From: Girardia tigrina
Taxonomy: Eukaryota
Direction of reading: 5' to 3'
DNA length: 57,362 nt
Assembly (NCBI GenBank): GCA_001938485.1
Contig: MQRK01230384.1
Coordinates: 1-57,362, forward strand
Part shown: piece by piece, positions 1,240-47,008 of the stretch
Layout of the letters: each line of letters opens with the position of its first letter
Numbering within the stretch: position 1 is the stretch's first letter
The notes under the pieces: generated by a model
What the model was told of the DNA's origin: nothing
Databases searched by the model: none
Seen by the model: only the letters and a program-made list of their open reading frames with translations
Program-made: the position numbers and the translations under genes

Positions 1240-4200
1240 ATGGATATCTTCACGGGTCAACTGTTACCTGAAAAGTACAGAAAAGGCGATAATGTGGAGA
1301 TATTTATTGAAGAATGTGAAATATTCTTTACTTTTGCAGGAATAGCGAAGGCCAAACAATAGACAATAGACATTTGTTTGTTGGAGAGAGAGCAGAAAGA
1401 TCGATACAAAGCGGCAGATAAGACAATAGTAGGTTTTAAACACCGATTGAGAAAGGCATTCTCTTGAATTTCCTCACTATTCGAAGACCTGACTGAGGCA
1501 TGCCGGTACAGGATGAAGGAAGATATACCGGAAGTATTTTTAGAAAGTAGAAAAGCCATGAAAGCTGTCAAATGTAGAAATTGTGAAAAAGCTGGTCACA
1601 CATGTGAAACGTGACAAAGAAAACCAATCAAGTGTTTCGGATGTGGAAAAGGACACATGATAAGAAACTGTTCGGAAAGTAGACCAATAAAATTTTATGG
1701 GTGTGGACAACAGGGACACGTAAGAAGAAACTGTCCAAATATCGAATGCAAAAGATGTCAAGATAAAGGTAACAGGGAAAGTGAATGTTATGCAAACTTA
1801 AATGGCAGAAGAAGACAGCAAAATACAGGTGACAATAACTATCGCGGATCCGGATACTATCAACAAAGATATAGAGATAGAGAAGATAGAAGATGAGGAG
1901 ATAATTGAAGATTCGAGAATAACATTGAAGAAGAATATGAAGAATCATTTACTGGAAGTGAACACCCAAAAAGCAACGCCTCGACAGAAGTGGAGCCAGT
2001 CAGGGCAATAAATTGAAAGATAACAGCGACTCCCAAAGTATTGGTATTTATAATAGAAGTAATATATCAAATATTATAGACGTAGTGATAGACGATGAAA
2101 GCAATGTTGAGATAAGTGAAGCAAGAGTAAATGATAAAGTACGGAAATTTATAAAGAAAGAAACTTTTGAGAACAAGCTTGGACGAAGTTAGTGAGAACA
2201 ATTGAAGAAAAGAACACAGAAGAAAATGTCAGGATGTTGTCAATAGATGAATGGAAAGCAGAAAATATATTGTATGATAGAATGCAAGGCCGGCCGAGTA
2301 TAAAGTTGATGATACAAGGTAACGTGGAGGATTGTTTATAGGGTACAAGTGCATTAGTAAATGTAATCCACAGAAAGATTTTTGAGAAACTAATGAACGT
2401 AAAATCAGAAAAGGCAGATATTAAATTAAAATGTGCGAACAGTAGTCAACTAGATTGTATGGGTAAAATTTCAGTGGACATAGAAATTAAAGAAAAACGA
2501 AGAAATATAATGTTCATTGTAGTAAATGACGTAAAACCAGACATACTAGGAGGCATAGAACTGCAGATAGCATTTGAAATCGAGTTACATTGGAAAAAGA
2601 AAGAAAATGATGTGAACGAACAATGTTATCAATTATGTAACTTAGAAGCCAAATTTGGACGTAAGGTTACAAACGAGGAAAGATTCAAAAGAGCCATGGA
2701 AATTATGAAAATTGCAGATAAATCAAAGATTGTGGATATTGTTAAAAAACATCAAGGAGTTTTTATGGTGGATAAATGGGATATCGGATGTACGACGATG
2801 ATTAAACATAGAATAGACACGAAAGGACCTTCAATTAACCTAAGACCACATAGGCAACCAGTTAATCTGGAAGAAAAGATCGATGAGACTATTAAGATTT
2901 TGTGGGAAAACCACATTATTAAGAAATGTAATTAACCATGGAATACACCGATGATTTGTGTATGGAAGAAAGAAAAGAATGAGGTTAGAATTTGCTTGGA
3001 TTTTAGACAGCTAAACCTAGTCACGGAGAGACAGGCATTTCCTATGCCAAGCATGATAGAAATGATGGACAAATTGTATGGAACCAGATAATTCACATCA
3101 AACGATTTATGTAATGCATACTACCAGGTCAAACTAAAAGAAGATTCAAAGCTAAAAACAGAATTTCCCACAAAGCTAGGATAATTTTGTTTCAATAGAA
3201 TGCCTTTCGGTATAGCAGCGGCACCGGGAATGTTTCAGGAACCTATGACAAAGGTGGTCGGAGGCATAGAACAGACAGTGGTATATTTAGATGACATTCT
3301 TATATTTTCAAAATCGTTGGAACAACATTACGAAACTTTGGATAAAGTATAGGACCAAATCAGGAAAGCAGGTTAAATAATTAATCTGGAAAAGTACCAT
3401 ATCTTAAAAACGGAAGTTAAATTTTTGGGACATGTAATTAATGATAAAGGTATACAGACGGACCCATCTAAATTAGAAGCCACAAAGACATTTGAAAAAC
3501 CGAAATGTGTAAAGAATCTAAGAAGTTTTCTTGGAATTTGCAATTATTACAGACGATTTATTAAGGACTATGCTACAAAGGCCAATACATTGGAACAACT
3601 GTGTGGATTGAACAAGAAGAAATTGTTATGGACAGACGCATGTGATGAAGCATTTGCAGAGATGAAAGAGGCTTTAACAACATCACCGATTCTAGGATTC
3701 CCAGACTTCCAGAAAGAATTTATACTGGACACTGATGCCAGTTTCGACACGATTGGAGCAGTATTATCCTAAAGACACAAGAACGGACGTGAGACAGTTA
3801 TTGCATATGGTTCACACTCCATGAATACTCATGAAAAAGGAAATTACTAGGAAAGAGCTGTTGGCAATGTATTACTTTTGTCAGCATTTTAGTCATTATT
3901 TATACGGGAAGCGATTCACTTTGAGAACTGATCATAAGGTAATTACTTTTATGGTTAAAACAAAAAAAAACGATAACGGCGCAATTTCAGACATGGATAA
4001 ATTATTTATCAAGCCTGGACACACACTTAGAATACAGAAAAGGAATAGACCATTCCAACGCGGATATGTTGTCTCGGAATACATGTGATACATGTACGCA
4101 ATTCTTGATGGCTCATGAAGATAAAGACTCGAAGAATCAACGTACTGGACATATCTCAGATATTCAAATATCAACAAGAAGAAATAGAAGAAATTAAAAG

Positions 4201-5190
4201 AGACCCAATTTCAGGTAAAGACAGAATACTTACAATTGAAGACGACATAATAAGAACAAATATGGGGAAGATTTGGATACCAAAGTCAAAAATAAAAGAA
4301 ATGATCATACAAATACTTACGCTTTTCTGGCACGCGGGCGAAGAGAAAGTAATGAAATACATCTCAGAAAATTATGTCATGATCAATCGGAATGAAAAGA
4401 AGTAATTGGACAATGGGAAGCATACCAAAAAGTAAAACATTAACGTCCGCTACGAAGGAAAAAACGGGTGACACTGGTCACAAATGAACCATTTGAGAAA
4501 GTCTACATAAACATATGCGGACCACTAAAAGAGACTTGGAGAAGGAAAAAGTATGCTGTTGCAATCATAGATCTGTTTAGTAGGTACATATCTTTGACAG
4601 CCATTACCAAGCAGGATTAAATAACCATTAAAGACACGATAATGACTTAATGGATCTTGAGATTTGGAGCACCGAAGGAAATACATACACATTGTGGCAA
4701 GACATTCGAATTGAAGGTAATAGAAGACATGGCTGAAAGCATGAGCATCAAAATGTGTTACTCAAGCCCTTACTATCATAACACGAATGGAATAGTAGGC
4801 AGACAATTTCGGACAATTAGAGAATATTTGAACGCATTGTTACAATCAAAGAAAGTATCAAACTAGGAGGAACTACTACCGGAAATAGAATTCACATTAA
4901 ATGCAACTTTTCAGACATCAATAGGGAAGAGCCCAGCGGAAATTTTATTCGGTAAGAAAATATACAGAGAAAGATGGCATACAACAAGAAAAAGAAAACA
5001 CAACAACCAGAAGAAATTTCGAAATTGTAGATGAAGTACTAGTCAAGGTGGAAACGGGTATAAAGAGTAAAGATAAATATGAAGGGCCGTATAAAGTGAT
5101 AGAGAAAACATATGACAGAATATATAAACTAATAAATGAAGATGGAAGAATTTTAGATCGAAATGTGGAAAAATTGAGAAAATTCTATAA
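1240..5190 (+). pseudogene. Disrupted gag-pol of gypsy element 1
   Basis: ATG at 1240. ORF pieces 1657-1896 (zinc knuckles), 2393-2935 (PR/RT), 3425-3772 (RT/RH), 4115-4405 and 4657-4866 (IN), separated by stops and frameshifts. Protease DTG site is degraded. Confidence 0.95.
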
Positions 5191-5198
5191 AAGGAGGA

Positions 5199-5720
5199 TA
5201 TGAGGGGTTAATTTAAATTTTCATCTCGCCAGAATAATTTATTATTTTTTTAATTTAAAAGGTAAAATATTTTAATTTTAATATGCTTATTTAATATTTT
5301 ATAATTAAAAATAATATAATAAAAGAAAATCATAAAAAAATAAATATCTAATTAAAAATAAAAAATATCTTTTTAATGTATCTATTAAATATCTTAAAAT
5401 TAAAAATGATAAGAAAACCATTAAATATTTATTTATAAATAAAAATATTTTTACAGTCATAACAATTTATATATTTTAATAGAAGTTATGAAACAAATTT
5501 AAATAAATTTTAAAATAAATTTTTTAGTTTTAATGTGAAATGTATTTAATAAATTTGCAAGATTTTAAAAATTGAATCGAAAAGAATTTAATAGATTAAT
5601 TTGTGTTAGATAATTAAATTAACAGAAAAAATTATTTAAATATGTAAATTGTTGTTATATTAATAAATTTTGGTGTTAAAAAAATGAATTCAGATATTGA
5701 TGTTGCAATCACTTCTCACA
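5199..5720 (+). repeat. 3' LTR of gypsy element 1 (about 95 bp shorter than the 5' LTR)
   Basis: Preceded by PPT; matches 606-1222 apart from one internal indel. Confidence 0.95.
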
Positions 5721-6179: not shown

Positions 6180-8280
6180 AGCCTTTATTTTAACTAGTTT
6201 TTGACACAACTCCTTCAAAAAATGAAAGCTAATAAAAATAAACATATTTCCCCAGATAAATTATTTAATTCGAAAGAATGATTATTAAAAAATAAATTAA
6301 TGATTTTAAGAGCAATAAAATTCTCTAAAATTCAATATAATAAATGAAGCAAAAACTCTCTTTCTAGATATCCGATTTGATAAAATAATTTTTACAATAA
6401 ATGTCCTTGACATATGGTGGTTTACTGAAATCTCGTTAAAATTATTTTATTTTTTTAAAATTTATTTTAATTAGTTAAGAATACATTTCCATAAACATTT
6501 GCTAATTTCTTAGGTTAAAATAATTATTCTATTAAGAAATATTTTTTAGACAAATAATATTATTAATGAATAATAAGAATTTAAATAATAGTAATTATAA
6601 TTATTATTATACTTCTAAATATAATAAAATAATAATAATAATAAAATTTAAAATAATATGACGTCGAAAACGTTTCATTTGAATTTTATTTTCTAAATGT
6701 TTTAATTAATTAAAAGTAATTTGTTTAATTAATCTCTGTTCGTTTTTATTTGATCATTACTAGTTTTACTTCACAATAAAATTAAATGCCTCACTATAAT
6801 TAATTTTAATGCTAGATTCACTTTTATATTATTAATTATTTTTCCAGTTCTCGTTAAACTTGAATTAGAATATTTTAAATGTAAACAAAGCTTTTTTTAA
6901 TTGGAATTAAATAAAAAGATCTCTTTTTTTAAGATTATTTAAACGTTTTCTTAAGAAAATAAAATATACAGTTAAACGATTATTCTACAAAGTCTAAACA
7001 AACTTTTTTATCAGAAGGAAGGAAAACGAAATGTACAAAAAAAAACAAAATAGAACATTTTTGCAGAATTAAATAAAAAATTTATTTAACAAATAACTAA
7101 TTGTTTCAGAAAGGCCATTGGGAATGCCTTGCAATCCAACCTCGATCCAACTGTTTTATTAAAACCAGTGTTTCCATGTTCCCTTAGTCAGTTTAATAAT
7201 ATTTTAAATGATAAAAACAATAAAATTTTAAACAAACTGTAACAGACGAAAGTAGGAATGAATAAATCATTAATAATTGTTCTCTAAAATATTTTATTTC
7301 ATATTTCCTGTTGAAACAAATTCCGTCTTTCTGTTAATGAAATTGGAACTCCGAAGGGCTAAACTCATATTTACAACTGTACTAAGTGATAACAAAAAGT
7401 AACACGAACGGTAACTTCAAAGATATCAAAATTAAAATGTTTCTAAATTTTATTTTTGAAACTACAACGAATTTTGATCCACGCACTTCCAAGACGTTTG
7501 TTTTTAAGATAAGTTCCACATTCTTTTTCCAAATAAACTGCAAGATCGGTACTGTCTCTTTATTCATACTTTTGCGAATTTAAGCGATGTCCTGGTGGAG
7601 TCAATGAGGGAGACCATTTGGTTATTAATTTATCTGTATATTTTTTTTATTTACCATGAGGTTTCTAAACTAAAGAAAACAAATTCACAGGGCATTTTAG
7701 CAAAATCAGCTATGCTTGAAGTGGTTATTTCAGTTGTAGATTTTGGTACGAGAGTGTTGTATGTTTCCTGCTACTGATTCAATATTTGGTGATTGTTGTC
7801 ATCACTCGAAATAAAAAAATTAATAATATGTTTATTACCTAGATTGATAAAGTATTATTATTCTCATATTTTGCTTAGTGGTCTTGTCCTAGTAGTTATG
7901 AAATGCAACTCGTTTATTCATTTATAGATTTTTTACACAAATTCCAAATATTCAATCCATTTCTTTATATCAATGCCTTATTCGTCAAAGTAAAAATTTC
8001 TACAAGTTTGAATATTTGTGACTCGAAAACTAATTTAAATTCTATAATTTGAATACAGTCTTAAAAATAGAGAAAGATAAGAATGATATTATTATTAATA
8101 TTTTAAAAGTTCTAAACAACAATATAAATATTTAACTTACTCAATGCCGTTGTCAAACAAGGCAAAATCTGAAGAAGTTTAAAAAAGGATTCTATATTCA
8201 GAATTATGGTCAATTAATTATAAATTTATAATGGGTCATTTCTTCAAAAAACCTGTGTTTAGGCCGAAACACTTTCCTTG
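6180..8280 (-). pseudogene. Decayed multi-exon protein-coding gene of unidentified family
   Basis: Protein-like minus-strand frames with stops (HNSEYRILFKLLQILPCLTTAL; DLAVYLEKECGTYLKNKRLGSAWIKIRC; FDIFEVTVRVTFCYHLV; PFGVPISLTERRNLFQQ; WIEVGLQGIPNGLSE) separated by short AT-rich GT..AG intron-like gaps (e.g. about 8081-8140). Confidence 0.5.
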
Positions 8281-8558
8281 TTAAATTTTTACTACCAAAT
8301 TATTTTTTTTAGTTTTTAATGTATATATCCATGAAATTTTATTAATTATTTAATACAATTATAAATCTGGATTAAGTTAAGGACAGAAAAGTTATTCTGG
8401 TATTTTTTATTACAGGTGTATATACCACATAATAAACTAATATATTTATATTTATTTGATTATTTTCTTTTTTCTTTCTCTCTTCATGTACCCACTGGAA
8501 GACCTATTATTAGATGGCTGCTTCAGTAGAAAGAAAATTTTTAAGAGAGAATAAATAA

Positions 8559-8605
<47 letters not shown>

Positions 8606-8639
8606 GAAAAGAAAGGCCTTTTTTTGAATATTAAATTTA

Positions 8640-9170
8640 TTCCCAATACAAACGTGTTTCACCATTTCGGCATCTTCAGTGTAATGAAATAAAGTGATTA
8701 ATTACTATTTATATAGTCGAAAAACTATTACATCATACGTCTCAAAAACATGCTTTTTTTTCTTTTAAAAAAAAGTATTTTAATGATATTTTAAAAAACT
8801 TTAATATGATTAGATGAATCACCTTGCACGTTTAAGCATGGTTTATGATGCTTTATTAACAATGCTTCGGCAATAATCTTTTCATAATTTGTGTCAAAAT
8901 TATTTAAAATCACTTTAAAATCATTATTGTAATCCATAAGATTACCTTTACATTTTTTAATATGGCTCAATATCGAACTATTTCTACTCGATTGAGTATG
9001 TTCAGCAATTCTAGTGCGGAGATGACGACTTGTCTCTCCAATGTATAAGTGATTGGAGACATTTGAATTGATAAACTAGATTTGCCTTAATACACAAAGG
9101 AGTTTTCAATTTGTTGGAGAAATAGTTCCGGCATTTATTAGTTAAAAAAATTACTCTCAATTTTATAATA
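8640..9170 (-). mobile_element. 5'-truncated Penelope-like retroelement: GIY-YIG endonuclease tail plus 3' region
   Basis: Manual translation: NYFSNKLKTPLCIKANLVYQFKC/(frameshift)NHLYIGETSRHLRTRIAEH...EALLIKHHKPCLNVQGDSSNHIKVF*, with the stop at 8791-8793. A hammerhead motif lies about 110 bp downstream. Confidence 0.9.
8646..8685 (-). ncRNA. Minimal type I hammerhead ribozyme motif
   Basis: Minus strand reads UACA-CUGAAGA-U-GCC-GAAAU-GGU-GAAA-CAC-GUU-UGUA: both catalytic boxes, stem II, NUH triplet and a 4-bp stem I. Confidence 0.8.
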
Positions 9171-10108
9171 TTGATTACTCTCAATTAGAATTATATAATA
9201 TTTTTCATTAAAATTACGTTTTGCAATTTATGACTTTGTTAACATAGAGTTACTAAAACTCTTGGAAGATGAAAATTTCAAAAAAGAGATAAAACTTAGT
9301 CAAGTCTAATTTAAATTTATTTTCTCAAAGAAGAATGTATGCCGAAAAATATTTAAGTATTTCAATAAATATAATTAAAATATTAAATAAATCAAACAAT
9401 ATTTATGATCAATAAATTCAAAAATAATATATTCTAAAATAAATAATTAAAGAATGAAACCTTAAAGTAATGTTAATTATTATTTATAAAAATAAATTTT
9501 GATTTTTATTTTGGCATTAAAACGACTTAAAAATATATACATTTTTATAAATAATAAAATCAAAAATTTCAAAATAAAGCAAAACATTTTCAAAATGAAA
9601 ATAATTTCAAATAATAATTAATTATTATTAATACAAAATTAAATCAAATAAAACATTTTTGTCCAGACAAATTTTGAAAAAAATTTCAAGATTAATGATA
9701 AATATTATAAATCGTTTTAAATAATTGTTTGACAATTAGATTTATTTTAAAATTATAATATTAGAAATTATTCCGTATGAAAATTCTTCGTTTTATCTTT
9801 ATTAAAATCTGACATTAGAAAAACAAATTACCAAAAATAAAATTAGGAATTCGTTTATTAAATCGAAATTATATAAAATTTTGATATTATCATTATACTT
9901 GATGAATTTTTATTTTTCCTGAAAAAAGTATTTGTTTTTTGTTTGATAATGAAGATCATGTTGAATGGATTGCAAATAATAAAAAATATATTAATACTCT
10001 ATGTTATGAAGCTGAAATAGGTAGAGAAAAAAGAATGTAAACAGAATATTTAATATAATAATATTAAATTAATATAATTATTAAAAATTGAATATTTATT
10101 ATAATGTT

Positions 10109-10475
10109 TGTGAGGAATAATTTGAATGTTTGATATTTTTTGTTTGAATTTTTATGTTGATTTGGAATTTGAATTCTTATTATCTGAAAATATGTATTGT
10201 TTAAATTCATTTTTATTTAAATTTATTGAAATATTTTAAATAACTTTATTATTTTTATTTACAGTTTTTAAATAAATAATTAAATTAATATTTTTTAATA
10301 AATAATAATCATTTTAATTTTTAACTAATAAATATTTTAACAATTTATTTAATTCCCCATTTGCTCAGATAATAAGAATCAAGTCAATAATTAATAGACC
10401 GATGCAATCTTACGAAAGTTTTGACAAAGATTGTCCTGAGGTCATTAAAAGTCATTTTGGTGTTCTTAATAATGT
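10109..10475 (+). repeat. Solo/partial gypsy LTR
   Basis: Starts TGTGAGGAATAA like the PPT-anchored LTR at 51113; 3' part matches 15505-15685. Confidence 0.7.
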
Positions 10476-12391
10476 TAATGAAACTAGAATTAAAAATTAA
10501 TTGATAAAAAATTATTTAGACTAAAATCATCATTTGATATAAAAATTATATTTATTAAAAAATATTTTTTACGGTGTGTAATTGTAGAGAATTCAGCACT
10601 GTTTGTCCAACTAAAAAATTGAACAATAAAATTTATTTTGAAAATTAATTAATGAAAAAACTTGTTTAAATAAATGAATTTGTGTGATGATAAATTAACG
10701 AAATGAACGTTACATTTATTTCCATTAAATTTTTATACGAATTTAATAATAATAAAAAAATATAATAAAATTGTTCGACGATAACGATTGTTATAATTTC
10801 GACAGTCAAATATTTTTCAATATTCATTTCACGACGGTTTCACACAATTTATTTGAATTATTAATGAATCATTTGAGTCCTGAATTCAATTTCTGTTTAG
10901 TCTCCGTTTTGTGTTCGAATTTCTCTCAGCATCACGAGTAGTCTCTCGGTTCGATCCCGCTCTAGACCACTTAATTATCATGATCCTTTCTGGTCAAAGA
11001 TCCCGCTCAGTCGTCGGACTGTTCTCTGAAAGTCATCTAATTTTCCCAATCACACCTTGGCAGTATGGCACGCTTGTCCACTCGTCGTTTCCGACAGGTT
11101 TCGGAAAGTGTGCTAACTCGAAAAATTAAAATAAAATGATATGACCAAGTGTCGGCCGAAATCTTAAACGAGAAAGACTTTTGAGTCGGTGATAAAGTGC
11201 CTTTTATTTCCAGAAGGAATAAAAAACATCTTCGTTTTATAACATTTTTTATTTTAAATTAACACTTTTATTGTATCTTTTTTTTGCGTTTTAACAAGCG
11301 TTTTTATATTCGCAAATTTCAATAATCACAATGATCACACAATTTTTTTAAAGTTTTTTCATTTCTGTTTCAATTATTGGAGCATCACACTCATTTGGAG
11401 TAATCGAAAGACATTTTAATGAAATTAATCGCGTAATTTGATGTGCTAAATCGATTGAGAACGTTTTCAAAATGGTAAAAATATTTTCTCACAGATTTTC
11501 TTTGGTAATGAGTAAAATATGCCATTCAGAACTATTTCTAATATCACAACAGATAATGATGATTTGTTAGAAAAATCGAGAGCGAGAGCGAGCAGAGCGA
11601 TATCGTGGCTGCGGCACTCTGGTGATGGGTGGCAGTTTTTTGGTTGTAGGGATGAAAAATAATTTATCATACCCGGACCTTGCCAACTTTGGGGATGTTG
11701 GAGCGCCTTTTCGGGATTGGTTTTCATCATTATCTTATACTTGCCTTCGATTTCGATAATCGGTTTGAGAATTTTTCCTTCTCTCTCTATTTTCGCCGCA
11801 GATATCGAATAGTCAGTTCATTTTTTATCGATAACCAATTCTTTGGTAACTAAAACCACCGTTGAAACTCCAATAGGTTTTGGAACCACTTGAAAGCATT
11901 TACTACTATCAACATTGGAGGATCCATATATTTCACCATGAAGTCGACTGAATTCAGTAGTAACATTTGTTGGTTTTCTGATTTCAGTTTGTAAAGAACC
12001 TTACTCTGATAAGAAGCACCGACATCGGAAAGAAACGTTTTCTTACAGCACAACCGACACATTAACACCGACGCTCGATCAACAAGAATCACTCAATTCG
12101 GTCGAGAAACACGAGATCGCCATGCACTAATCGGGCCCTTGAATAGTCCATGAGAACGATCGATCACATCATCCAACAACTCAGTGTGATATTGGCAACA
12201 GTAGCGATCCTTGTCCCGTTTCTCACAATAGATTAACTAACACACAACTGACACTTCCATTCTCTTCTGTCAGTCGACGATTTCCTTCGATCGATTCTCG
12301 GTCGCAATTTGCGAGTGCATCGACAATTTTCATTGATCGGACAATTGTCGTAGGAACACGAACAATAATTCTCGGCGACTTTCCCGTTGTG

Positions 12392-12617
12392 GAGTCTAAA
12401 TTCCATCGTAATCGCGAGTAATTCAATTGTTTCATTAACGGAAGATTTTTTCTAATTTAATTTGATTTGTGTAGATATTCGAGTAAATATTTGAAAATAT
12501 TCGGCTTCATTTCTTGTAACACTAACGGACTTGCGGAGTCTTTGCAACTCATTTGATCGACCATCATCGATTTGAATATTTCAAGCACGCAATTAAAATG
12601 AATTTGTGACCATAAAA
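12392..12617 (-). pseudogene. Frameshifted BTB/POZ-domain fragment (resembles BTBD19-type proteins)
   Basis: Joined frames: FYGHKFILIA/EIFKSMM...SPLVLQEMKPNIFKYLLEYLH/TNQIKLEK/SSVNETIELLAITMEFRL, matching the BTB consensus (HK.IL...F..M...PLVL..P..F..LLEYL). Confidence 0.75.
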
Positions 12618-13836
12618 TTGTAATAAGATCTTGTAATAAGATTTCGGCTGTTAGTATCCTTAATAAAATTGATTATAAAAAAATAGTGAATTTCAATCAA
12701 GAAAAAATTCGCGCGTTCAAAAGGTTTATTCATTTAATTCGACAAAACAAAAACAAATTTTAATAAAAATTCGATTAAATTCGATTACACCAATTCATAC
12801 AATTTCTAATGTTTTTAAATTAATAAAAATTTTTGAAATTTTATAGAAAACATAAAAAAATTGTTCAATTATATGAATAAAATATTTTTAATCAACTTGA
12901 ACACAAAAAATTCTGACAAATTTTCGAATTACAATTTCGCCATCTAATCAAAACGACAGATTCATATCCAAATAATGAAACCGATTGAAAATAATATTAC
13001 AAAATAGACTACCGAATTAAAAAGATCGATTTAACGTTTATTTGTTGTAAATAATCAATAATGCAGTTTGATTGATAATTTGAAATTGCGTTTGGAAAAA
13101 TCCCCGTTTTCGAACTTTTCAACAATTCGACGTTTTTATAAGAAAAGTCAAAACATCGCAAAACAGTAATTGATATAAATGTCTAAGACGTTCTAAACAT
13201 GACCTATTTCACTTGACAAAAAGAGATATGCTTTTAAAACTCCCCTCTTCGTCGTCTATATCAGAGAGCGATGATCAATAATTATTGCTTACGAAACAAA
13301 TGTACAACTTAACGAATAGATCATCAAATGTCGAGCAGGTCGATCAGTCTCTGAAATATTTATGAACTACAGAAACTAATTAGAATGTAATTAACAAAAA
13401 ATATTATATAAAAATAAACTTTTCATATTTACAAATTCAGTAGAAAAAACAGTCATAACGAATAATGATTTTTTATTCTCACTCAGAGATATTACTTCCT
13501 ATTTTCTTTTATCACAATTTCCCGTAACTATTATTTGTTTTTTGTTTCTTTACATTCTTTTCTTTTGAAAAAACTTGAATAAAATACCCTATAAAAATAT
13601 TTTACCATATATTTAATAATATTTATTTATTTCCCCGCATTCACAAAGGAAATATCATTTGAGATGGGAAAAATTCCATTAAAAATAATAACACTAAAAC
13701 AATCATCAACAAAATATCGTATCAAAATACAAGAAAGAAATATTATTCCTTACTTTATATATATATANNNNNNNNNNNNNNNNNNNNNNNNNNNNNNNNN
13801 NNNNNNNNNNNNNNNNNGAAAGAAATATTATTCCTT

Positions 13837-15489: not shown

Positions 15490-15685
15490 TTAACCAATAA
15501 AATTTTGAATAAATATTTTAACAATTTATTTAATTTTCCATTTTCTCAGATAATAATACTAAAATCATTAATTAATAGACTTATGCAATTGAACGAAAGA
15601 TTTGACAAAGATTGTCTTGAGGACAATCAAACTTGTTATGTTAATAATAATATTAAAAGTCAAATTGATGTTCTTAATAATTACA
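15490..15685 (+). repeat. 3' part of a solo gypsy LTR
   Basis: Matches 10325-10470 and ends TTACA. Confidence 0.65.
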
Positions 15686-17132: not shown

Positions 17133-17670
17133 TTTGGTTAATCCCACATTGCTAATTCTACTTACCAAAAAATGGCTCACTAGGCATTTGTATTCAATGT
17201 ACACCTCCAACAAAAATATTAAAGAGAGGTGCTTTTCGAACCCATTTAAAGTTTGATAATAAGTTGAAAGCATTTCGCCCCCCTCAATACTTCTAATCAT
17301 TCTCTTTATCAGGTTCAACTACGGAATCATAAACCCCATCTATCCTGAGGGAAAGTTCGGAAGGAACCAGCTACTAGATGGTTCTATTAATCTTTCGCCC
17401 CTATTAGAATGTCTGACGATCGATTTGCACGTCAGAAACGCGGCGGTCCTCCATCAGAGTTTCCTCTGACTTCAACCTGAACAAACATAGTTCACCATCT
17501 TTCGGGTCTTTACACTATCACTCAAACTCCACCCAGATGCGAACACCTCCAGCACTCGTCCGGGAAAACCGGATAAAGTCCCATCACAGCTCACTTAAGA
17601 ACCTTTACATTAATTTCGCCGTGGGGTTTCGTAAAGCCCTTTGACTCACGATCATATAAAACTCCTTGGT
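17133..17670 (-). rRNA. Decayed 28S (LSU) rRNA gene fragment, D3 region and flanking core; pseudogene
   Basis: Reverse complements of conserved LSU motifs: CTATCCTGAGGGAAA, GAACCAGCTACTAGATGGTTC, CGATCGATTTGCACGTCAGA, CATAGTTCACCATCTTTCGGGTC, ACTCCTTGGT. Substitutions occur in normally invariant positions. Confidence 0.93.
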
Positions 17671-18102: not shown

Positions 18103-19366
18103 TTAGGTTGGTCGAAAAATAATGGCGGTTTTGGGACACAAACTGCAAAGACGTGCAAATTCACAGAAACAAAAGTTTATTAATCAAAGTATGAACCGTT
18201 GGAATCAATACATTTTTGCCAACGAGAAACAAGTTGTTTTAGTCCATCAGCATAAAATGCATCGGTTCTCGAAGCGACGAATTCTTGGAAGGCATTTTGA
18301 GCATCATTTTGGTTTTTGAAATTTTTTTCACGTAGGAAGTTGTACAAATGCCTGAAAAAGTAGAAGTCCGTTGGCGAGAGGTCTGGTGAATATGGTGGAT
18401 GAAGCAGGCTTTCATAGCCCAACTCATTAAGCTTTTGAAGAGTCACTTTTGAAATATGAGGTCTAGCGTTATCATGAAGAATGATGGGACTTTTTCGATT
18501 GACCAATCCCGAACAAAGAGTTTACAATTTTTTATGCGTTTCATCAATTTCATGACAGTACCTCTCCGCTGTGATTGTTTCACCTGGATTCAAGAAACTA
18601 TAGTGGATGATTCCAGCATCAAACCACCAAACTATAACCTTACGGGGTGTAAATTTCGGTTTTGGAAAGTGTTTCGGTACTTCATCTTTGTCCAAACACT
18701 GTGCAGATCGACGTCGGTTATCATACAGGATCCAGTTCTCATTACAGGTGCGATCAAGAAATGGATCGTTTTTATTGCGAAGATGATTGGCAGAACAAAT
18801 TTCATAGCGTCGGTTCTTTTGATTTTCATTTAAATCATGTGTAATCCATTTATCAAGTTTCTTGATTTTTCCAAGTTGTTTTAAATGATCCAGGACTGTT
18901 GAATGACTAATGCCCAACCCATCTGCAAGTTTTCTGATTGTTGTACGGGGATCTGTTTCCACCANNNNNNNNNNNNNNNNNNNNNNNNNNNNNNNNNNNN
19001 NNNNNNNNNNNNNNNNNNNNNNNNNNNNNNNNNNNNNNNNNNNNNNNNNNNNNNNNNNNNNNNNNNNNNNNNNNNNNNNNNNNNNNNNNNNNNNNNNNNN
19101 NNNNNNNNNNNNNNNNNNNNNNNNNNNNNNNNNNNNNNNNNNNNNNNNNNNNNNNNNNNNNNNNNNNNNNNNNNNNNNNNNNNNNNNNNNNNNNNNNNNN
19201 NNNNNNNNNNNNNNNNNNNNNNNNNNNNNNNNNNNNNNNNNNNNNNNNNNNNNNNNTAAGATTTCAAATAATATCTAACACTAATGCATTTAAACTTATA
19301 TACATATCAAAGTAGATAAACAAAGTATAAAGCTCAAAAACCGCCATTATTTTTCGACCAACCTAA
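18103..19366 (-). mobile_element. Mariner transposon (cecropia/Hsmar1-like TIR), disrupted transposase, internal N gap
   Basis: Perfect 30-bp TIRs TTAGGTTGGTCGAAAAATAATGGCGGTTTT, TA TSD; motifs WITHDL, HDNARPH, YSPDLSPTDFYFF. Confidence 0.97.
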
Positions 19367-21644
19367 TATTACATTCGTCTGAGAAAAACGTGGTATAGTT
19401 ATCCAATATAAATACCCGATGTACGCCGTTTGTAGAATAAGCTTGACATTTCCGAAACAATCAAATTGACATTATCTATACTTATTGGTTTCCTAATTAC
19501 GAAAAATGAATATCAGCAATTGATTATGTTGAAAGATTTCTTCTGATTGTATTTAGTAACATATACGACCAAGTTTCGTCAACATTCAGCGTTTTATTCA
19601 TACATTTTACAGGTGTTTAGTCGATCGATTGGCATCTCTGAAATTTTAAAATTATATCCTTGATATCCGCGTGTGATGCCCCGATGTGCAGTCTTTCCAA
19701 TAAATATTTCATTCTCCTTGCTCTAAGATGGCACTTATTCTGAAGCTCTAGAAGCCTTTCATGATTATCTGCGACAAAAACAACAGTTAACCTGTTTTAA
19801 TTGGCTCTATATTCTAGTCAACTCGTCCGCCATGTAGCTTTCGCTACTTATGAACTCAATCAAAACGTCTATTTTATACTCTTGGCATAACTTTGTGATG
19901 ATCGGCACTCGTCTCTTAATCGACAACTGACTAAAAGACCTTGAGCTCAACTTCCTACGATCCTCTAACGTGTTAGATATCGAAAATATTAAAAATAATA
20001 TATTAAATCAGGCACTTATTTGATGGAAATGGCCCGAGCTTTTTTTCAACATTTATTACAGCATTTACTGAAAATTTACCATAAAAACTACCAAACTTGT
20101 GGTACAAAAATACTTAATAGGTGGACAATATATTTTTAAGAACTTTTGATTGGGTTTCTGTCTTATTTTTAACTTTAGAAAAGTTGAAAACCTTTAGAAC
20201 GAATTGGAAATTTCATTTTTGTAACCGAACTTGAAATTGAATCATTAAACAATTAAATACTAAATTTCTTTTTGCTGAAAATTCCATCAGCTTTATTAGT
20301 GAAAGTTCAACAAGTTTTTTTTTCACTTGGTAAAGAGTTTTCTTGAAGAATGCTATTATTACTCCCAATCAAATCATCAGAATCCTCTAAGTCAAAATTG
20401 TGCTTATTAAAGTTGCCTTTTGAATTGAAAAAAAATTTTAAGAGAAGATTTCACCATTTGATTTTTGTTATTATTTTCGTAATATTGGCAAAGTTCCATA
20501 CATAACACACACACACACTTTAGCATCCAATCACATCAGAAATACACACAAAAAACACACTGCCTTATTTGTATACATTGTGCTATTGAAAAATTCAAAT
20601 TAACAAACGTCATAAGACATTCAAATTTATACACACATAATCACATGACCAATACTCAATCGATTCAAATATCTGGTTAATACTATTCACAGAATCGATT
20701 TAAATTAAACAGATTTTCATTATTCAAAAAATAAAAATACCGAGCAACAAAAGATCCACGCGCTCCACCGACACCGAAATCACTCTTCATTTCAAAAAAT
20801 AATACAATTTACTTTGTTTTAATATCCACAATTTTAAAAATCTTTCATTTACTCATTTAATTAATTTGTTTATATATTATACTTTTTTTATTTTATTTTA
20901 ATTTGGTTATTGATATTATTTCCTTAATTATTTTTAATATATTTAAAATTATTTTCTTTTAATTTAAATGGTAAAAATGTCCGGTCAAATCAAAATTGCG
21001 CTCCACTATGTAAAGACATCTGTAAAAGAGCTAACTGAAAACCTGTTTCAGTGAGCTCCTTTAACGTAACAAAAATAAAGATAAATATGTATAAAACTTT
21101 ATTTTTACGCAATATAAATAAACATATATAACAAAAAAAACGACATACGAGAGAGGATAAATTTTGGTTTCGATTTGTGTCTATTGTTCAAAGATTTCTA
21201 AGGAAAGATCTTCTGTTACAACGATATTGATGGAAACGTCAAAGAATTATTCGGTTGCACGATGAGATTTTGAGGAAATAGATTATCTGAGAGATGCACT
21301 TTCAGGGGAATTTTTATAAATTGATTTGCAGAAAATCCCTTTATAAAACGAATTTACAGGAAAATGTTTTCGGTGTTTTGATTTGAAATTTAGATGCGAG
21401 TTTGATGTTTGTAATTGGAATGATTGATAGTTTTGGAAATTATTCTGAATGAGCTATAGAAATGCTATCGATGCTGCTAGAAAATTCATTTATGAAACGA
21501 ATTTACAGAAAAATGATCTGTATTTAATATTATAATTGTAATCCGTAATATTAATGCATTCAAAATTTCCGATCTTTATTTCTTATCGATTTATTTTTTT
21601 CTTATAATATATCTATTTATATATCCTATAATATTAATATATTA

Positions 21645-22876
21645 GTATTATGTTAAAAGTATTCCCTAAAATTACACAACTAAAATGTATGACCCTAAAA
21701 TTTCACAACTAAAAAGTATGCCACTGAAATTACACAACTAAAAAATATGCCCCCGTGTAATAAATACAATAAAAACACAATACAAAATTATGAAATTTAT
21801 TCATCATTAAAGTAATTTTTCAATAAATTCATCAATTTTTCAAAAGAATCTCCAGAAATGTTGTCTCGGCACATAAACTCATTAAGGTAATCTGCAAAAA
21901 TTCTTTTTTGACTCCTTTCATTTTCTTGCACCGTTTTTTTTGTTTTTATTCCAATAAGATTCAACATTTTGTGTGTGAATCCCGGTTCTAGGATCTACAA
22001 AATTAATCGAATGATTAACTGTATCATGATCATATCTTAGAGCATTTAAATTGGAATATGCTTTCCATTCATCACTGCGAATAGTTGTACACGGCAATAT
22101 TACTTCACAGATAATGGGTCTCAAAATAGCCGCAGATCTGTTTGGAACCACTCACATTATACCTCTCGCCGGAGTAAAAGATGTATCTACGATACCAAAT
22201 ACCAATACCTGATGGTTAGCAACTCAGTCACGATGATATTTTTGTTTGTGGCAAAAAAGACTTTCATCGATTTGATAGATTACATTTTCGCTGCCCAATC
22301 TTACAGGATTAGCTTCAAAATATTCAAAAATGCATTTTATTATGGTTTTGAATATTTCAATAAGGGTGGGCGTTGATACAGTCAAAGACCGTTGAATCGC
22401 CATAATTGATTCTAACATTGCTCCATCTGTAGAGCAAATTTATCTATGTTTGAAGACTGATTCTGAAAATGCCCAAAAAATAATTAGTTCTAATTGAGAA
22501 AGTTGTTTCGTAATTTGAACACCTCTTATTTTGGTAGTTCCAGACATATTGGTCTATAAAACTTTGCTTAGCTGTCCAGGTCATTACCTCGCCGCAACTG
22601 CCACACTTCATTGATGATTTCAAAATCACCTTTGTTTTAAAAAATTTTATCGTGTCTTGTAAATCAGCATTCATTAGTCTTCTTATGATTGTTTCATACG
22701 CACTAGGTGAAATGATCCAAAAAATATTTATGAACATTAAAATAAATAAGATGTATTTATAATGAGATATAATTACAGAACTAAAAAGTACGCCCCTAAA
22801 ATTACACAACTAAAAAGTACGCCCCTAAAATTACGCCCTAAAATATGCCCCTGGGGGCATATTTTTAACAAGATCC
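21645..22876 (-). mobile_element. Merlin (IS1595/ISXO2-like) DNA transposon, disrupted transposase
   Basis: 8-bp TSD ATATATTA, imperfect TIR (GGATCTTGTTAAAAATATGCCC), about 30-bp subterminal tandem repeats; motifs CGSCG, QIDES, SDEWKAY, HTQNVESYW. Confidence 0.93.
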
Positions 22877-24166: not shown

Positions 24167-24283
24167 TAATTTTATCTAGACAATAAAAGAATGTATATTT
24201 TACATTTTTGTAATTTATAACGTTGTACACTGCTTAAATGATTATATTTATAAAATTAACTATTAAAACGTAATTGTATTCAG

Positions 24284-24707
24284 ATAAACGCAATAGACAA
24301 CGACAATGGGGTTAACGGGACAGTACAATACAGAATTGTAGAAGACAGAAACAAAAAATTGTTTGATTTAAATTCCCAAACTGGTGATTTGACTCTTATA
24401 CGATCTTTAACAAGTGCAGACGTAGGTTCATACGTTCTGAACATTGTGGCATCCGATGGAGGAACTCCCAAGAAAGAAATGACACAGACCTTGGTCATTG
24501 AAATTGATAATTCCAATCCATTGGGCACTCAAATGACTTTAGAGTCAATACTTTATTCAGATCAGGCCTTGAATTTGTATATAATTGTTGCAATTATTAT
24601 TGCATCTTTCATCATATCAATTATAATGTTAACTGCCATTTGTATAATTCTGAAGAAATCCAAACAACAAAGACTGAGAACGACTCAAAATACAGAAATT
24701 AAAAAAG
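24284..24707 (+). CDS. Protocadherin-type gene exon: last cadherin repeat, transmembrane helix, juxtamembrane basic stretch
   Basis: CAG acceptor; open frame INAIDNDNGVNGTVQYRI...FDLNSQTGDL...VASDGGTP, TM LYIIVAIIIASFIISIIMLTAICIIL, then KKSK; donor AAG/GTCGGT (phase 1). Confidence 0.93.
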
Positions 24708-24958
24708 GTCGGTGTTTTGTAAGAATGTATAATAACGCTGTATTTAATCTTTAATTATATTAAAAGAAATTAATTTTTAATTAGCAAATTTGTCATAAAT
24801 ATTGAGTGAGATAAATTTCGTTGAAATAATTTTTTTTAAATAGTTGCAGAAAACTAATGAAGCTTTTTCTTCATAATGATCAAATAGAGAATAAATAAAA
24901 TTAATGTAAGGAAGCTAAAAGATAATGTTGCAATATCTTTTACCTTCCTTTCCAAATT

Positions 24959-29055: not shown

Positions 29056-30338
29056 TTAAGGTGAACCAAAAGTCTTTTCGTATTTTTTATTAAAAATTTA
29101 AACATAATTTTACAACAAATAAAAAACATTTAAGTTTCAAAGTAAAGGCCATTTGAATCTATAGCTTGAACCCATCTATGGGCAAATTGTGCGATCCCGC
29201 TGCGGTACCAATCCTTGTTCTTTGAAGCGAAGAACTGGTGACACCCGTTTTCGACCTCGGCCAGATTATTGAAGCTGCGACCACGTAGAAAGTGTACCAT
29301 AGAGCGGAAAAAGTGATAGTCGGATGGCGCAAGATCAGGACTATATGCTGGGTGTGGAAGAAGTTCAAAGGCGTCGAGATTTTTGATTTTTTCCTTTGTT
29401 TGTTTGGTGGTGTGCGGTTTTGCATTGTCCTGTTGTAAAAGAACTCGCTTTCGATTGATCAAAGCGAGGTATTTCTCGCCTAGTGCTGCATACATTCGAT
29501 CAAGTTTGGTGCAGTAAAGGTCAGCGTCAATGGTACGACCATTTGGAACCAGCTCAAAGTGAATCATGCCTTCGAAATTCCACCAAACACACAAAAGTGC
29601 TACCTTGAGAAACGATCTCGTTTTGCTACCGGTTTCGCCATTTGTCCGGGGTCCAACCATTGATTTTGCTAATCTGGATTACTGACGTAAACCAACTTTT
29701 ATCGCAAGTTACAATTCGACTCGTGAAACGGTCATCGCGTGGATTTTCAAGCAATTTTGACAAGTTTCGAAATGCATTTCGGCTTGAATTTGTGTCAATT
29801 CATGAGGCACTTCTCGACATCGTCTGTTGACCTTGCCAAGGCGTGAAGGTGTCGTACAATAGATGTTTGAGGAATAATGAGTTCGGCCGACATTCTGCGA
29901 GTACTTATTGATGGATTTGTCTCGACGGCTCAACGAATTGCTTCGGAATCTACGGTGATAGGTCGGCCTGAACATGCATTTTCTCCGAGGTCAATGTCGC
30001 CTTCGTTGAACCTTTTGAACCAATTTTGTGCAGTACGATTTGAGATCACATTATCGCCTTCAACTTCGCATATCTTCTTTGTTGCTGCAGTTGCGTTTAA
30101 GCCATGTTTTCAGTAATGGCGTAAAAGAACACGAATTTCAAAAATTTTCATGATTTTTCTAAATGACCATAAAAATTATATTAACGACTAAGTAGAAGTT
30201 TTAATATATATTGTGATAGAGCGGTTCAAGAGCTTTCAAAACATATAACACATGTATATAAAATATCTTCATTTGGTAATAAGAAACAATTGAACAAAAA
30301 GACGTAGAAAATATGAAAAGACTTTTGGTTCACCCTAA
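29056..30338 (-). mobile_element. Full-length mariner transposon, inactivated transposase
   Basis: TIRs TTA(A/G)GGTGAACCAAAAGTCTTTTC(G/A)TATTT, TA TSD, 1283 bp; ATG at 30151 with an early stop; VPHEL, CVWWN, QDNAKPH, YSPDLAPSDYHFF. Confidence 0.97.
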
Positions 30339-43592: not shown

Positions 43593-45400
43593 AAGTGTTT
43601 CTCAACCTTTTTGAGTTAGTGACTCACTCAAAAGACCGTTAAATTTTGGCGACACACCACAAATAAAAGGCTATTTGTTTTTCGAAGTAATAACACATCA
43701 ATCCATTTAATCATAAATTAGTTAGAATTAAAGAAATTAACTGATTTATTCTTGTTTTATTTTCTTGCTATAAACCATTTTTCATTGTTCAGTGATATTG
43801 TATCCCTTTTTTTTATTATTTTCCGTTTTATTGTTAGATCAATTAATATTACTTATAATTATATATTAATTTATATTAATATTCATATTAAGTATTAGAA
43901 TGGGAAAGACAAAAGAATGGCTTCTAAAAAACAATATCGTGACGACAAGAGATAACAAATATTGGATCCATCTAAAAAAGGGAGCAGACTTTATATAAGA
44001 TATACATAAAATGTTATGCCACGCAGGAAGTAAGAAAGTTTACAATTACATAAAAGATGACTTCGATATGTATGAAATGAAACAACAAATAAAGAACATC
44101 GTACAAAGTTGCGCAAACTGCCAGAAATGGAAGACACTGACGACAAAAACGAAAGAGAAACACACATTAAACAATCTGCCGACGAACCATTTCAAAAAAT
44201 TTACATGGACTTTTGCGGACCGTTCAGAAGGTCTATGAATGGATACCAATACACTTTAGCAATAATCGATCAATTTAGTAGGTACATCAGCTTGACCGCA
44301 GTGGTACACCAAGACAAGCAATATCATACATATGAAATGGATTTATTTATGATATATTGCAATACTCATGAATTAAATACAATTAATATTCCAAATCCTC
44401 AATGAACATTTATTTTTTGTTATGACCTCTTGCTCTAGAGAACAAAAATTCTTTCTCGTTTTTTGGTTTTAATTTCAGTCATAACTGAGTATTTATATTC
44501 GCACAGATACAAAGTAGAGAAGGGTAATAAAGTGTTCATGGAAATTTTTATATATTTGGAAATTCAGGTAAGATTTTTATCCAAAATGAAGAGATATTAT
44601 TTTCATCGAAATTTAGTTTTAAACTTCTGTCATTTTTAATATCTATTAGCTTTTTTCAGTCGAGAATGAAAAATGATTTCCGCTGTTATCGTTATTTAAA
44701 AATTGATTTCTTACCCAGTCGTATTTTCTAACGTCTGTAGAGGGAAATTAGTGCAAAATCTTGTTTTGCAAAGTTTTCAGTGTTTCAGTAATTATAATAT
44801 TATCACATTTAGCTTTTTATGTTAGAGGAAACATTTCTAAGTTTTTATCTTCTAATCCAAGTACTTAATTTATTATTAAAAGAATTGATTTTGTCACATG
44901 ATAATAAAATATTTCTTGTTCTACTTACATTCTTAAATTTAATTTGTTGAAATAGTCAAACAGAGCTGCTAAAAATACTAACTTTGAACACTATAAATAC
45001 TCTTTCAAATAATCATTATACCTATTTTGTTCGGACGTAAAATAAACAAGTAAGTCTACTTGTAATTCATAAAACCAAGATAGCACTATTTTAAAAAATG
45101 TGAAGCTATGAATGCAGCTCACTTAACATTGTTAATGTGCACGGAAGGTCTGTGGTTATCTAATGGAAAACAGTCGGCATTTCAGGGCTTAGTTTTTATA
45201 AAATTCACAACTTGTATTACTTGGTGTAAGTCAGCGGTTAGACATTTTGAGATTTTAGATTGTCTGTGTAATACACAGAGTAGCAATTATATCAGTATTA
45301 TATTCCTTAACAATGGTAAAAAATCCTCTTAATGAGTCTCACATTGATTTTGCTGCATCAGTACAAATACTTATGCAAGATTTTCGTAGTATGCCGTAAA
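43593..45400 (-). mobile_element. hAT (Charlie/Buster-like) transposon remnant
   Basis: Terminus AGTGTTTCTCAACCTTTT; CVLHRQ...VIQVVNFIKTKP; dimerisation domain SFWIKILPEFP...LLPFSTLYLCE..SVMTEIKTKKRER. Confidence 0.85.
43891..44318 (+). mobile_element. Gypsy integrase fragment, inverted near-identical copy of about 48080-48508
   Basis: HKMLCHAGSKKVYNYIKDDFDMYEM...CANCQKWK shared with the minus-strand element. Confidence 0.92.
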
Positions 45401-45429
45401 TCTATCATAAAATAAATTAATTTAAGTTT

Positions 45430-45800
45430 ATTATAACAAGTTTATACGTGTAATGAGGCAATGCGCATACATTAGAGAGACTTCCCGTCATCTCTGCAAA
45501 CGAGTCCAAAAACACGCTTATAGAGAGAGTGAGAGAAATATTGCTGAGCATAGAAAAACTTGTAAAGGTGATTCGAGTAAAAATGATTTTAAAATTCTAT
45601 ACAAGCATTTTAAAAATTATTGTTCATAAGGTCTAGTGACCCTAAAATTAATGATAAAACAATTTTTAAGAGTTTTCCATTAATGAAACGTAATAAATTA
45701 CATAATCATCAATTTCGTATCTGAGCAATAAAAAAGCTAAAAATTAGTGATCGAAATATGACGGTAAAACCGTCGAAATATATTTCGGAAAAAAATAAAA
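45430..45800 (+). mobile_element. Penelope-like GIY-YIG 3' fragment with decayed hammerhead motif
   Basis: AYIRETSRHLCKRVQKH...IAEHRKTCKG...NDFKIL aligns with the 8791-9060 GIY-YIG; hairpin GACGG-TAAAA-CCGTC-GAAA-TATATT at about 45760-45784. Confidence 0.8.
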
Positions 45801-46898
45801 GCTACTGATGCTTGTAACCGTGAACCCTTGTCAACCCCATTTTTTATTTTTCATGCTTCCAAAAATATAATATAATCTTACAATTAGATTTTATGAAAAT
45901 TTGTTATTTAATATTTTCTAATGAAAAGATTTATGTAAAAAGATTTTGTTTGGAAGTTACGGCAATGAAACGCCAAGCTAAAGTCAATCAAAAACGCGTC
46001 ATCCAAATAGGACAACAAAATATCAATCGGATTAGAGTGACACAAATGAATATATGAATTTTTTGTTTAAATTTACTAAGAAATTACATTTCAAAACGCT
46101 TAAAATTGAGACAAGAAATTCGCGTTTTTCTCTTTTCACACACAAAAATTATGACATTCACTTATTTACATTTATTTAAAAGAATCGTTTTTGTTTTAAT
46201 AAAGAAATTTCGTCATTGATTTTATTTTATTTTATGTTTCAGTTCAATAAAAGAATTTCTTTGAAATTTATAAAATAGTTTAATTTAATTTTCAACAATG
46301 CTGAGATTTAAGTATTTGAGGAATTTATATTTATATAAATAAATAAATAATTAAAATTATATATTTTCTGTTCTATTAATATTATATTTATTCGTAAATA
46401 TAGAGAAAACAATTATTACTATAATAATAATAATAATAAGTATTATAAATTTATAAAATGTCTGTCTCTTTTTATGATTAACTAAATAACAATTGATAAA
46501 GTTCTTAAAAAAGCTAAAATAATTTTATAAGTATAATCTTTATCGTAGAAAAAAAATCTTTTTTTTTCTGAAATAAAATAAATATCGGATTAAATAGAAA
46601 TAATTTATTTTATTTTAAGTGTTTAAAAATATTTCCTTAACCGTTACTCAAATAGAAATTTTGAAGCTCCATAAATATTTTCCTTTCACTGTGATATTTG
46701 AACAAGATTTGTCAAAATTGAAATTTTAAATTACAGATTTTTGTATTTGAAGAAAAATATTTTTGTAATTATAAGCTTATAATACCGGTTTTCTAACTGT
46801 GAATATAATTATTACAGAAATATGGTTATTATAATTCTTTATTATTATTATTATTATTGTTATATTATTATAATTATTATTTTTTTCCATTCTTTTTA

Positions 46899-47008
46899 TT
46901 AGCTTACTTTCTACATAGGTATATATATATATATATATATCCATGAAATTTAGAAACCTGTTTTTGAAGGCCTTCTACTCAATCGATTTTCTTCGAACTT
47001 TCCACACT
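46899..47008 (+). repeat. Truncated second copy of the 26876 repeat
   Basis: Sequence match on both sides of the (TA)n tract. Confidence 0.7.

Follow-up and report, generated by a model that had tools for sequence, protein, structure and literature searches.

A minimal type I hammerhead motif in a truncated and frameshifted Penelope-like element copy of Girardia tigrina

Introduction

The contig MQRK01230384.1 of Girardia tigrina, analyzed here over its entire length of 57,362 nucleotides (the window), is full of transposon remains and belongs to an AT-rich genome of 1.43 Gb. One of these remains, on the minus strand, raises the question of whether a hammerhead ribozyme lying behind the end of a GIY-YIG endonuclease is genuine, to what kind of element it belongs, and whether this copy could still cleave its own RNA. 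The reading favored here, and held with considerable confidence, is that the window carries a 5'-truncated, frameshifted copy of a high-copy Penelope-like element (PLE) with a minimal type I hammerhead; that the motif of the family is predicted to cut only when paired; and that this lone copy is likely unable to do so, its palindrome having been broken by a point change. The feature is genuine and belongs to a class already described, and the copy that carries it is a dead one. Published accounts leave open what PLE hammerheads do (Craig et al. 2021, PMC8557442; Frangieh et al. 2024, PMC11167929). The window copy itself is of little weight, being one decayed end among more than 1,500, and the question of how cleavage relates to translation belongs to the family, not to this locus.

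The hammerhead and its setting

As read from the sequence, the predicted hammerhead occupies positions 8683-8647 of the minus strand with a predicted cut between 8651 and 8650 (Table 1), which is where the original prediction had set it and where sequence and family together confirm it. The CUGANGA and GAAA boxes and the UH at the cut are all present, 11 of 11 core positions carry the family letter, and the monomer is predicted to fold into the hammerhead topology. The motif begins 107 nt past the stop codon of the GIY-YIG frame (8793-8791, minus strand), in keeping with the distance of about 110 nt first proposed. The endonuclease C-terminus that had been read on this strand is likewise upheld, the stop-to-stop frame 8791-9075 (94 aa, with no start codon ahead of YIG) matching Pfam GIY-YIG PF01541 at 29 bits (E 1.3e-6), above the cut-off of 22.6.

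The significance of the hammerhead derives from its family, because it is there that exact core matches, a fixed place behind the endonuclease and covariation between families are found. Its identification as a minimal type I hammerhead that lies within a PLE pseudo-LTR, an already-described class, is supported; the pseudo-LTR location, a full-length copy and the covariation agree with the original assignment to that class.

Table 1. Features of the PLE copy and its hammerhead in the window
Feature	Position	Strand	Basis
5'-truncated PLE copy: linker end, GIY-YIG endonuclease, 3' UTR/pseudo-LTR with hammerhead, next-ORF start	8604..9165	-	family similarity from 9165
Linker and first half of GIY-YIG (VYQFKC), frame upstream of break	9050..9165	-	frame 9011-9184; tblastn to P0001 aa 682-721
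Endonuclease break: 5-nt deletion and clustered substitutions	9046..9057	-	alignment to L016, L039, L152; column counts
Second half of GIY-YIG (YIGET, R, H, E, N) to stop	8791..9049	-	Pfam PF01541; tblastn to P0001 aa 728-808
3' UTR, 5' part of pseudo-LTR	8684..8790	-	common to family copies
Minimal type I hammerhead, 4-bp stem I, 3-bp stem II closed by G-U	8647..8683	-	sequence, fold, family counts, between-family covariation
Stem I 5' strand UACA	8683-8680	-	sequence
CUGAAGA box	8679-8673	-	sequence
Extra U between 9 and 10.1	8672	-	sequence
Stem II GCC/GGU, loop GAAAU	8671-8669 and 8663-8661	-	sequence
GAAA box	8660-8657	-	sequence
Tetramer CACG (family CGCG)	8656-8653	-	sequence
UU before predicted cut, triplet GUU	8652-8651	-	sequence
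Stem I 3' strand UGUA	8650-8647	-	sequence
Copy-level G-to-A, breaks stem III palindrome	8655	-	G in 77/81 copies found by DNA similarity
Copy-level G-to-A in stem I, G-U to A-U, pairing kept	8682	-	G in 78/83 copies
Likely ORF start inside ribozyme: ATG in loop II/stem II, five codons, cut after third base of Val codon	8651..8665	-	L152 frame
(TA)n microsatellite at 3' end of insertion	8563..8603	.	sequence

The element remnant in the window

The window copy is a 562-bp PLE end, 5'-truncated and frameshifted, that lies in (TA)n. A DNA similarity search of the genome returned 3,409 candidates, and among the best 40 that were scored (29 aligned) family similarity starts at window 9165 in 39 other top places (92-94% identity); the copy is considered truncated at that position because the similarity starts there. 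Depth in four public runs is zero at 9190-9260, an absence of cover that is itself uninformative, and loose ends at 9165 continue into family sequence. Of the 562 positions of the copy, 18 (3.2%) depart from the family majority; for the 51 copies whose alignment exceeds 400 nt, the median divergence is 2.1%. Near 9050 the copy has lost 5 nt, a deletion absent from the original prediction, which puts the endonuclease out of frame and takes away the second Cys of the CxxC.

At its other end, the copy uses the shorter of the family's 3' ends, lacking the optional tail of about 30 nt found on many copies, and a target-site duplication is unreadable since this end lies inside (TA)n. The insertion would have come from target-primed reverse transcription at a TA repeat, halted after 562 nt, and would have decayed neutrally since. 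No host gene across the insertion was identified by one Atlas search or by Pfam on a selection of 66 frames from the window, made up of 24 of the 53 that reach 90 aa and 42 others.

The family and its full-length copies

A single ORF, reverse transcriptase (RT) followed by GIY-YIG, holds for the family, of which the window copy retains the endonuclease part only. The copy L039 has an open frame of 458 aa with both RVT_1 (E 4.5e-12) and GIY-YIG (E 2.4e-6) domains, and 44 long homologues of this frame measure 807-1084 aa; a search of PDB sequences gave weak matches to group II intron-like RTs only. L152 is a near-complete tandem copy of the form hammerhead - RT/GIY-YIG frame - hammerhead, with same-strand hammerheads at 3476 and 6276, 2,800 bp apart, that bracket matches to P0001 aa 7-808; a truncated copy in inverted orientation lies just upstream, at 3272. 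Partial tandems, inverted 5'-truncated copies and an optional tail of 30-40 bp are all found in the family, most of whose 3' ends lie at one of two points separated by about 30 nt, usually with TA repeats after them.

The motifs of the protein point to a putative place in the Penelope/Poseidon clade. A CxxC inside GIY-YIG (two Cys between GIY and YIG) and downstream His residues, which together make up the CCHH motif, are present in L039 and L011, the RT-endonuclease linker of L039 has no CX2-5CxxC finger, and frames of the L124 and L139 types carry DKG.

Two candidate variants within the family were rejected. In L152 and L145, stem I is preceded by an altered sequence that was considered as a spliced form like that of D. 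virilis; it proved by eye to be the reverse complement of endonuclease coding sequence and so marks an inverted-copy junction. Close same-strand pairs (L120, L165, L152 6276/6426, L183-184), considered as retrozymes, straddle N gaps and are probable assembly duplicates. As a separate observation, L152:3272-3490 and L145:220-250 have different cut-site bases and the same inverted-copy junction upstream of stem I, which suggests that the junction itself was copied. Hammerheads of other PLE families (L019, L024, L076, L110, L156, L192) often lie within 1-2 kb of each other or of family copies, a clustering consistent with common TA-repeat targets.

Cut site, start codon and role in the family

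The hammerhead of the family appears to overlap the start of its ORF. In L152, a frame of 80 codons begins with an ATG in loop II/stem II. It can be aligned to P0001 from residue 7 onward (E 7e-9), and the starts of the three nearest homologues lie at roughly this point. The predicted cut falls after codon 5, at the fourfold-degenerate and hence synonymous third base of a Val codon. In the first 100 of 1,302 pattern matches this base is U in 49, A in 42, C in 9 and G in none, and G occurs in only two of all 1,302. Because the position is synonymous, protein constraint fails to explain the avoidance of G, which is weak evidence for a trace of selection for cleavage, resting on only two or three changes in ancestral copies. 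GUU is cleaved less efficiently than GUC. The original prediction had counted this triplet as a weakness of the window copy, a view at odds with the family, in which GUU is the commonest triplet among the matches counted. GUU is counted among the active sites, and GUG among those that are not cleaved, in PMC3138052.

An unlikely reading of these data is that the hammerhead of the family is no longer a working ribozyme and that its letters persist through their overlap with the first ORF codons and with a start signal for reverse transcription. The ATG and four further codons inside the motif fit such a reading, as does the closing pair of stem II (10.1-11.1), which is G-U in the window copy and in all 1,588 exact matches of the core and is fixed in the family, whereas it is G-C in 9 of 10 paired clusters from the comparison between families described below; the G10.1-C11.1 pair is called highly conserved, not invariant, by Cervera and De la Pena (2014, PMC4209133). 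Even intact family copies may be poor ribozymes, given this G-U pair. Cleavage was, moreover, described as unneeded for insertion of the Anolis element in vitro (PMC11167929), and there is no significant enrichment of copies with their start at the cut site: five begin within one base of it (5 true junctions in 11 hits) against 1 of 4, 1 of 3 and 4 of 8 at the control offsets +7, -29 and -10, a weak hint only (binomial P=0.076), as the four patterns differ in tolerance. Against a defunct ribozyme, however, the 5' half of the motif (stem I strand and CUGAAGA) is non-coding yet intact, and the near-absence of G at the degenerate cut-site base speaks the same way, within the limit of the few ancestral changes on which it rests.

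A further proposal, rather improbable as a whole, makes the ribozyme a switch on its own mRNA, in which the cut would remove the start codon and either stop production of the transposon protein or shift it to an in-frame AUG at codon 25, a minority of insertions would be copied from cleaved RNA, and the occurrence of U, A and C but not G at the cut site would be the trace of selection. The family is young (median divergence as given above), has a tandem copy that is nearly complete and offers three cleavage triplets that occur naturally, so that it would lend itself to a test of whether cleavage controls translation.

Stem III and the activity of the window copy

The change at 8655 converts the family palindrome ACGCGU to ACACGU. 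The imperfect stem III palindrome noted in the original prediction is therefore true of the window copy, but it is not a family trait, as CGCG occurs in 84 of the first 100 of the 1,302 pattern matches (counted by eye) and the departure from it is copy-level decay. The CACG variant is found in 44 copies genome-wide, among which the window copy is the sole one that also has the stem I change at 8682; it is seen on both GUA and GUU backgrounds, which are different subfamilies, and is therefore recurrent decay and no subfamily marker.

The consequences for pairing are predicted to be severe, with duplex energies of -7.5 kcal/mol for two intact copies, -2.6 for the window copy with an intact one and -2.3 for the window copy with itself. 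Within a single molecule, the predicted pair probability of stem III is 0, and no second family hammerhead exists on the 57-kb contig. In the account of Cervera and De la Pena (PMC4209133), minimal hammerheads were not cleaved when single and only to a low extent as dimers. The hammerhead of the window copy is probably inactive, because its palindrome is broken, its predicted duplex is weak, no partner lies on the contig and the monomers of that account were uncleaved. The earlier suggestion that this copy may still self-cleave is, on these predicted energies and in view of the missing partner, not sustained. In an active tandem element, by comparison, two hammerheads 2.8 kb apart would pair through the six-base palindrome and cut after GUH, perhaps with the aid of the element's protein, and such cleavage would trim long read-through transcripts and sever the start codon from the ORF.

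Two points weigh against inactivity of the window copy, namely its intact core with a monomer fold of hammerhead topology, and the prospect that protein help in trans, as in the Anolis PLE, could bypass the pairing rule. A rival proposal, judged very improbable, is that the copy still cleaves at a low rate if transcribed, aided by the element's protein or by the transcript of an intact copy. Its stem I is slightly stronger than that of the family, protein-assisted cleavage is described as demonstrated for the Anolis element (PMC11167929), and family-like contigs occur in public runs. Of the 22 such runs listed, all are contigs, none contains half the words and most are only guessed to be RNA; a single run declared as RNA-seq (X7), which may contain DNA, holds family-like sequence. 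Yet the contigs of five public runs that cover 8655 and 8682 have mostly the family letter there, not that of the window copy, the predicted heteroduplex with an intact copy is as weak as stated, the contig provides no partner, and the RNA-seq described for Anolis had no reads starting or ending at the cut site (PMC11167929). Inactivity of the lone copy is accordingly retained as the preferred reading.

Conservation and covariation between families

Within the family, the core shows no significant excess of conservation over base-matched flanks, with 11 mismatches in 903 where 17.5 would be expected, in keeping with the neutral decay of copies after insertion, and covariation within the family is uninformative because its copies are young and decay in this way. 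The comparison was consequently drawn between families, from 30 hits that form 15 clusters, 14 of them from loci unselected for pairing and the last being the family of the window copy, with none dropped and chance hits included. Pairing is found for 35 of 45 pairs in stem I (shuffle mean 20.7) and 35 of 45 in stem II (shuffle mean 22.4), values that none of 5000 partner shuffles reached in either case, and for 21 of 30 in the tetramer (shuffle mean 12.2), a value reached by 1 of 5000; the shuffle ignores relatedness between families. Several pair types occur per position in the stems of these clusters. The tetramer is palindromic in 80 of the first 100 generic matches listed, as counted by eye, many of these matches being copies of few families. 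The original prediction had been staked on conserved boxes and covarying stems, and it is borne out, stem I, stem II and the tetramer all covarying across the 15 clusters.

The hammerhead scan proposed at the outset gave a divided result: Rfam returned no hammerhead at the gathering score anywhere scanned and none at E up to 10 in 8000-10000, whereas genome-wide pattern searches lay strongly above their reversed controls. Chance resemblance in AT-rich sequence is scarcely credible as an account of the motif: although the loose hammerhead pattern is not enriched in the window (14 matches against a shuffle mean of 6.9, with 11 of 100 shuffles reaching 14), the monomer fold z is about 0.6 (fold z-scores overall, at 0.1-0.7, being uninformative) and Rfam is silent, this reading is refuted by 1,588 exact genome matches of the 23-nt core against 0 for the reversed control, by 7,634 matches of the generic pattern against 381 (a 20-fold excess), by a fixed pseudo-LTR place in a family of over 1,500 copies and by between-family covariation in three stems.

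Comparison with described elements

The closest counterparts of the motif are the metazoan PLE hammerheads described by Cervera and De la Pena (2014, PMC4209133), with which it shares type I topology, intact boxes, a 4-bp stem I (helix I has 4-5 bp there), the extra nucleotide between 9 and 10.1, a small helix III that is palindromic in most family copies, and a pLTR location in what are mostly lone copies of truncated elements, with some opposite-strand pairs. It departs from the examples described there in its stem II, which has 3 bp against 6-8 bp in those of Schistosoma and D. virilis, in a closing G-U pair where G10.1-C11.1 is highly conserved, and in the palindrome, which is lost in the window copy and kept in its family.

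Poseidon element PAc from Anolis carolinensis (Frangieh et al. 2024, PMC11167929), as described, resembles the family in its single RT and C-terminal GIY-YIG frame, its start codon inside the hammerhead with the cut site downstream of the start, its optional tail of some 30 nt, which results from two alternative 3' end points, and its AT-rich targets. Counted from the A of the start codon, the predicted cut lies 15 nt downstream in the family and that of PAc 26 nt downstream. According to that report, the PAc hammerhead cleaves only with the element's protein and is dispensable for insertion in vitro, and RNA-seq gave no ends at the site.

The endonuclease-bearing Penelope/Poseidon PLEs (Craig et al. 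2021, PMC8557442) are described with a C-terminal endonuclease bearing two Cys inside GIY-YIG, DKG, a linker without the CX2-5CxxC finger, a pLTR hammerhead, and partial tandem and inverted 5'-truncated copies with a tail, all as in this family. Unlike them, the family combines strong (TA)n targeting with a linker that has no zinc finger; in that paper, targeting to TA is linked to the linker. Non-LTR retrozymes (PMC7229834; bioRxiv 10.64898/2026.07.22.740005) share the type I hammerhead and short helix III and have a proposed origin from PLE pLTRs, but are described as non-coding tandem repeats of 170-400 nt. The window copy was considered as such a retrozyme and rejected, being a single copy with endonuclease coding sequence and with no second family hammerhead on its contig.

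Other features of the contig

Just upstream of the insertion, 9912-10583 is a further repeated sequence with high contig depth and a 145-nt direct repeat shared with 15508-15652. Within about 11400-12700 on the minus strand, 12460-12672 gives a weak BTB match (E 0.001, below the cut-off), and run contigs match 12392-12583 with indel differences of 1 nt and 2 nt, which suggests a decayed gene duplicate. An isolated large-subunit rRNA fragment of 294 nt (17367-17660, minus strand, 96.7 bits) is probably a dispersed piece of rDNA. On the plus strand, 24260-24754 holds a cadherin-domain frame followed by a hydrophobic stretch, with no other cadherin repeat found on the contig.

Remains of LTR retroelements (RT, RNase H, integrase) occupy 2342-5683, 43889-50805 and 53523-56528, with long inverted arrangements at 43.9-50.8 kb. 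Two Tc1/mariner-type transposase remnants lie at 18522-19274 and 29130-29678, and a piece of an ISXO2-like transposase at 21918-22809, between 29-bp repeats at 21638-21762 and 22739-22863. A weak tblastn match to the GIY-YIG part of P0001 at 45462-45617 on the plus strand (35% over 55 aa, E 0.009) is possibly a remnant of another PLE family.
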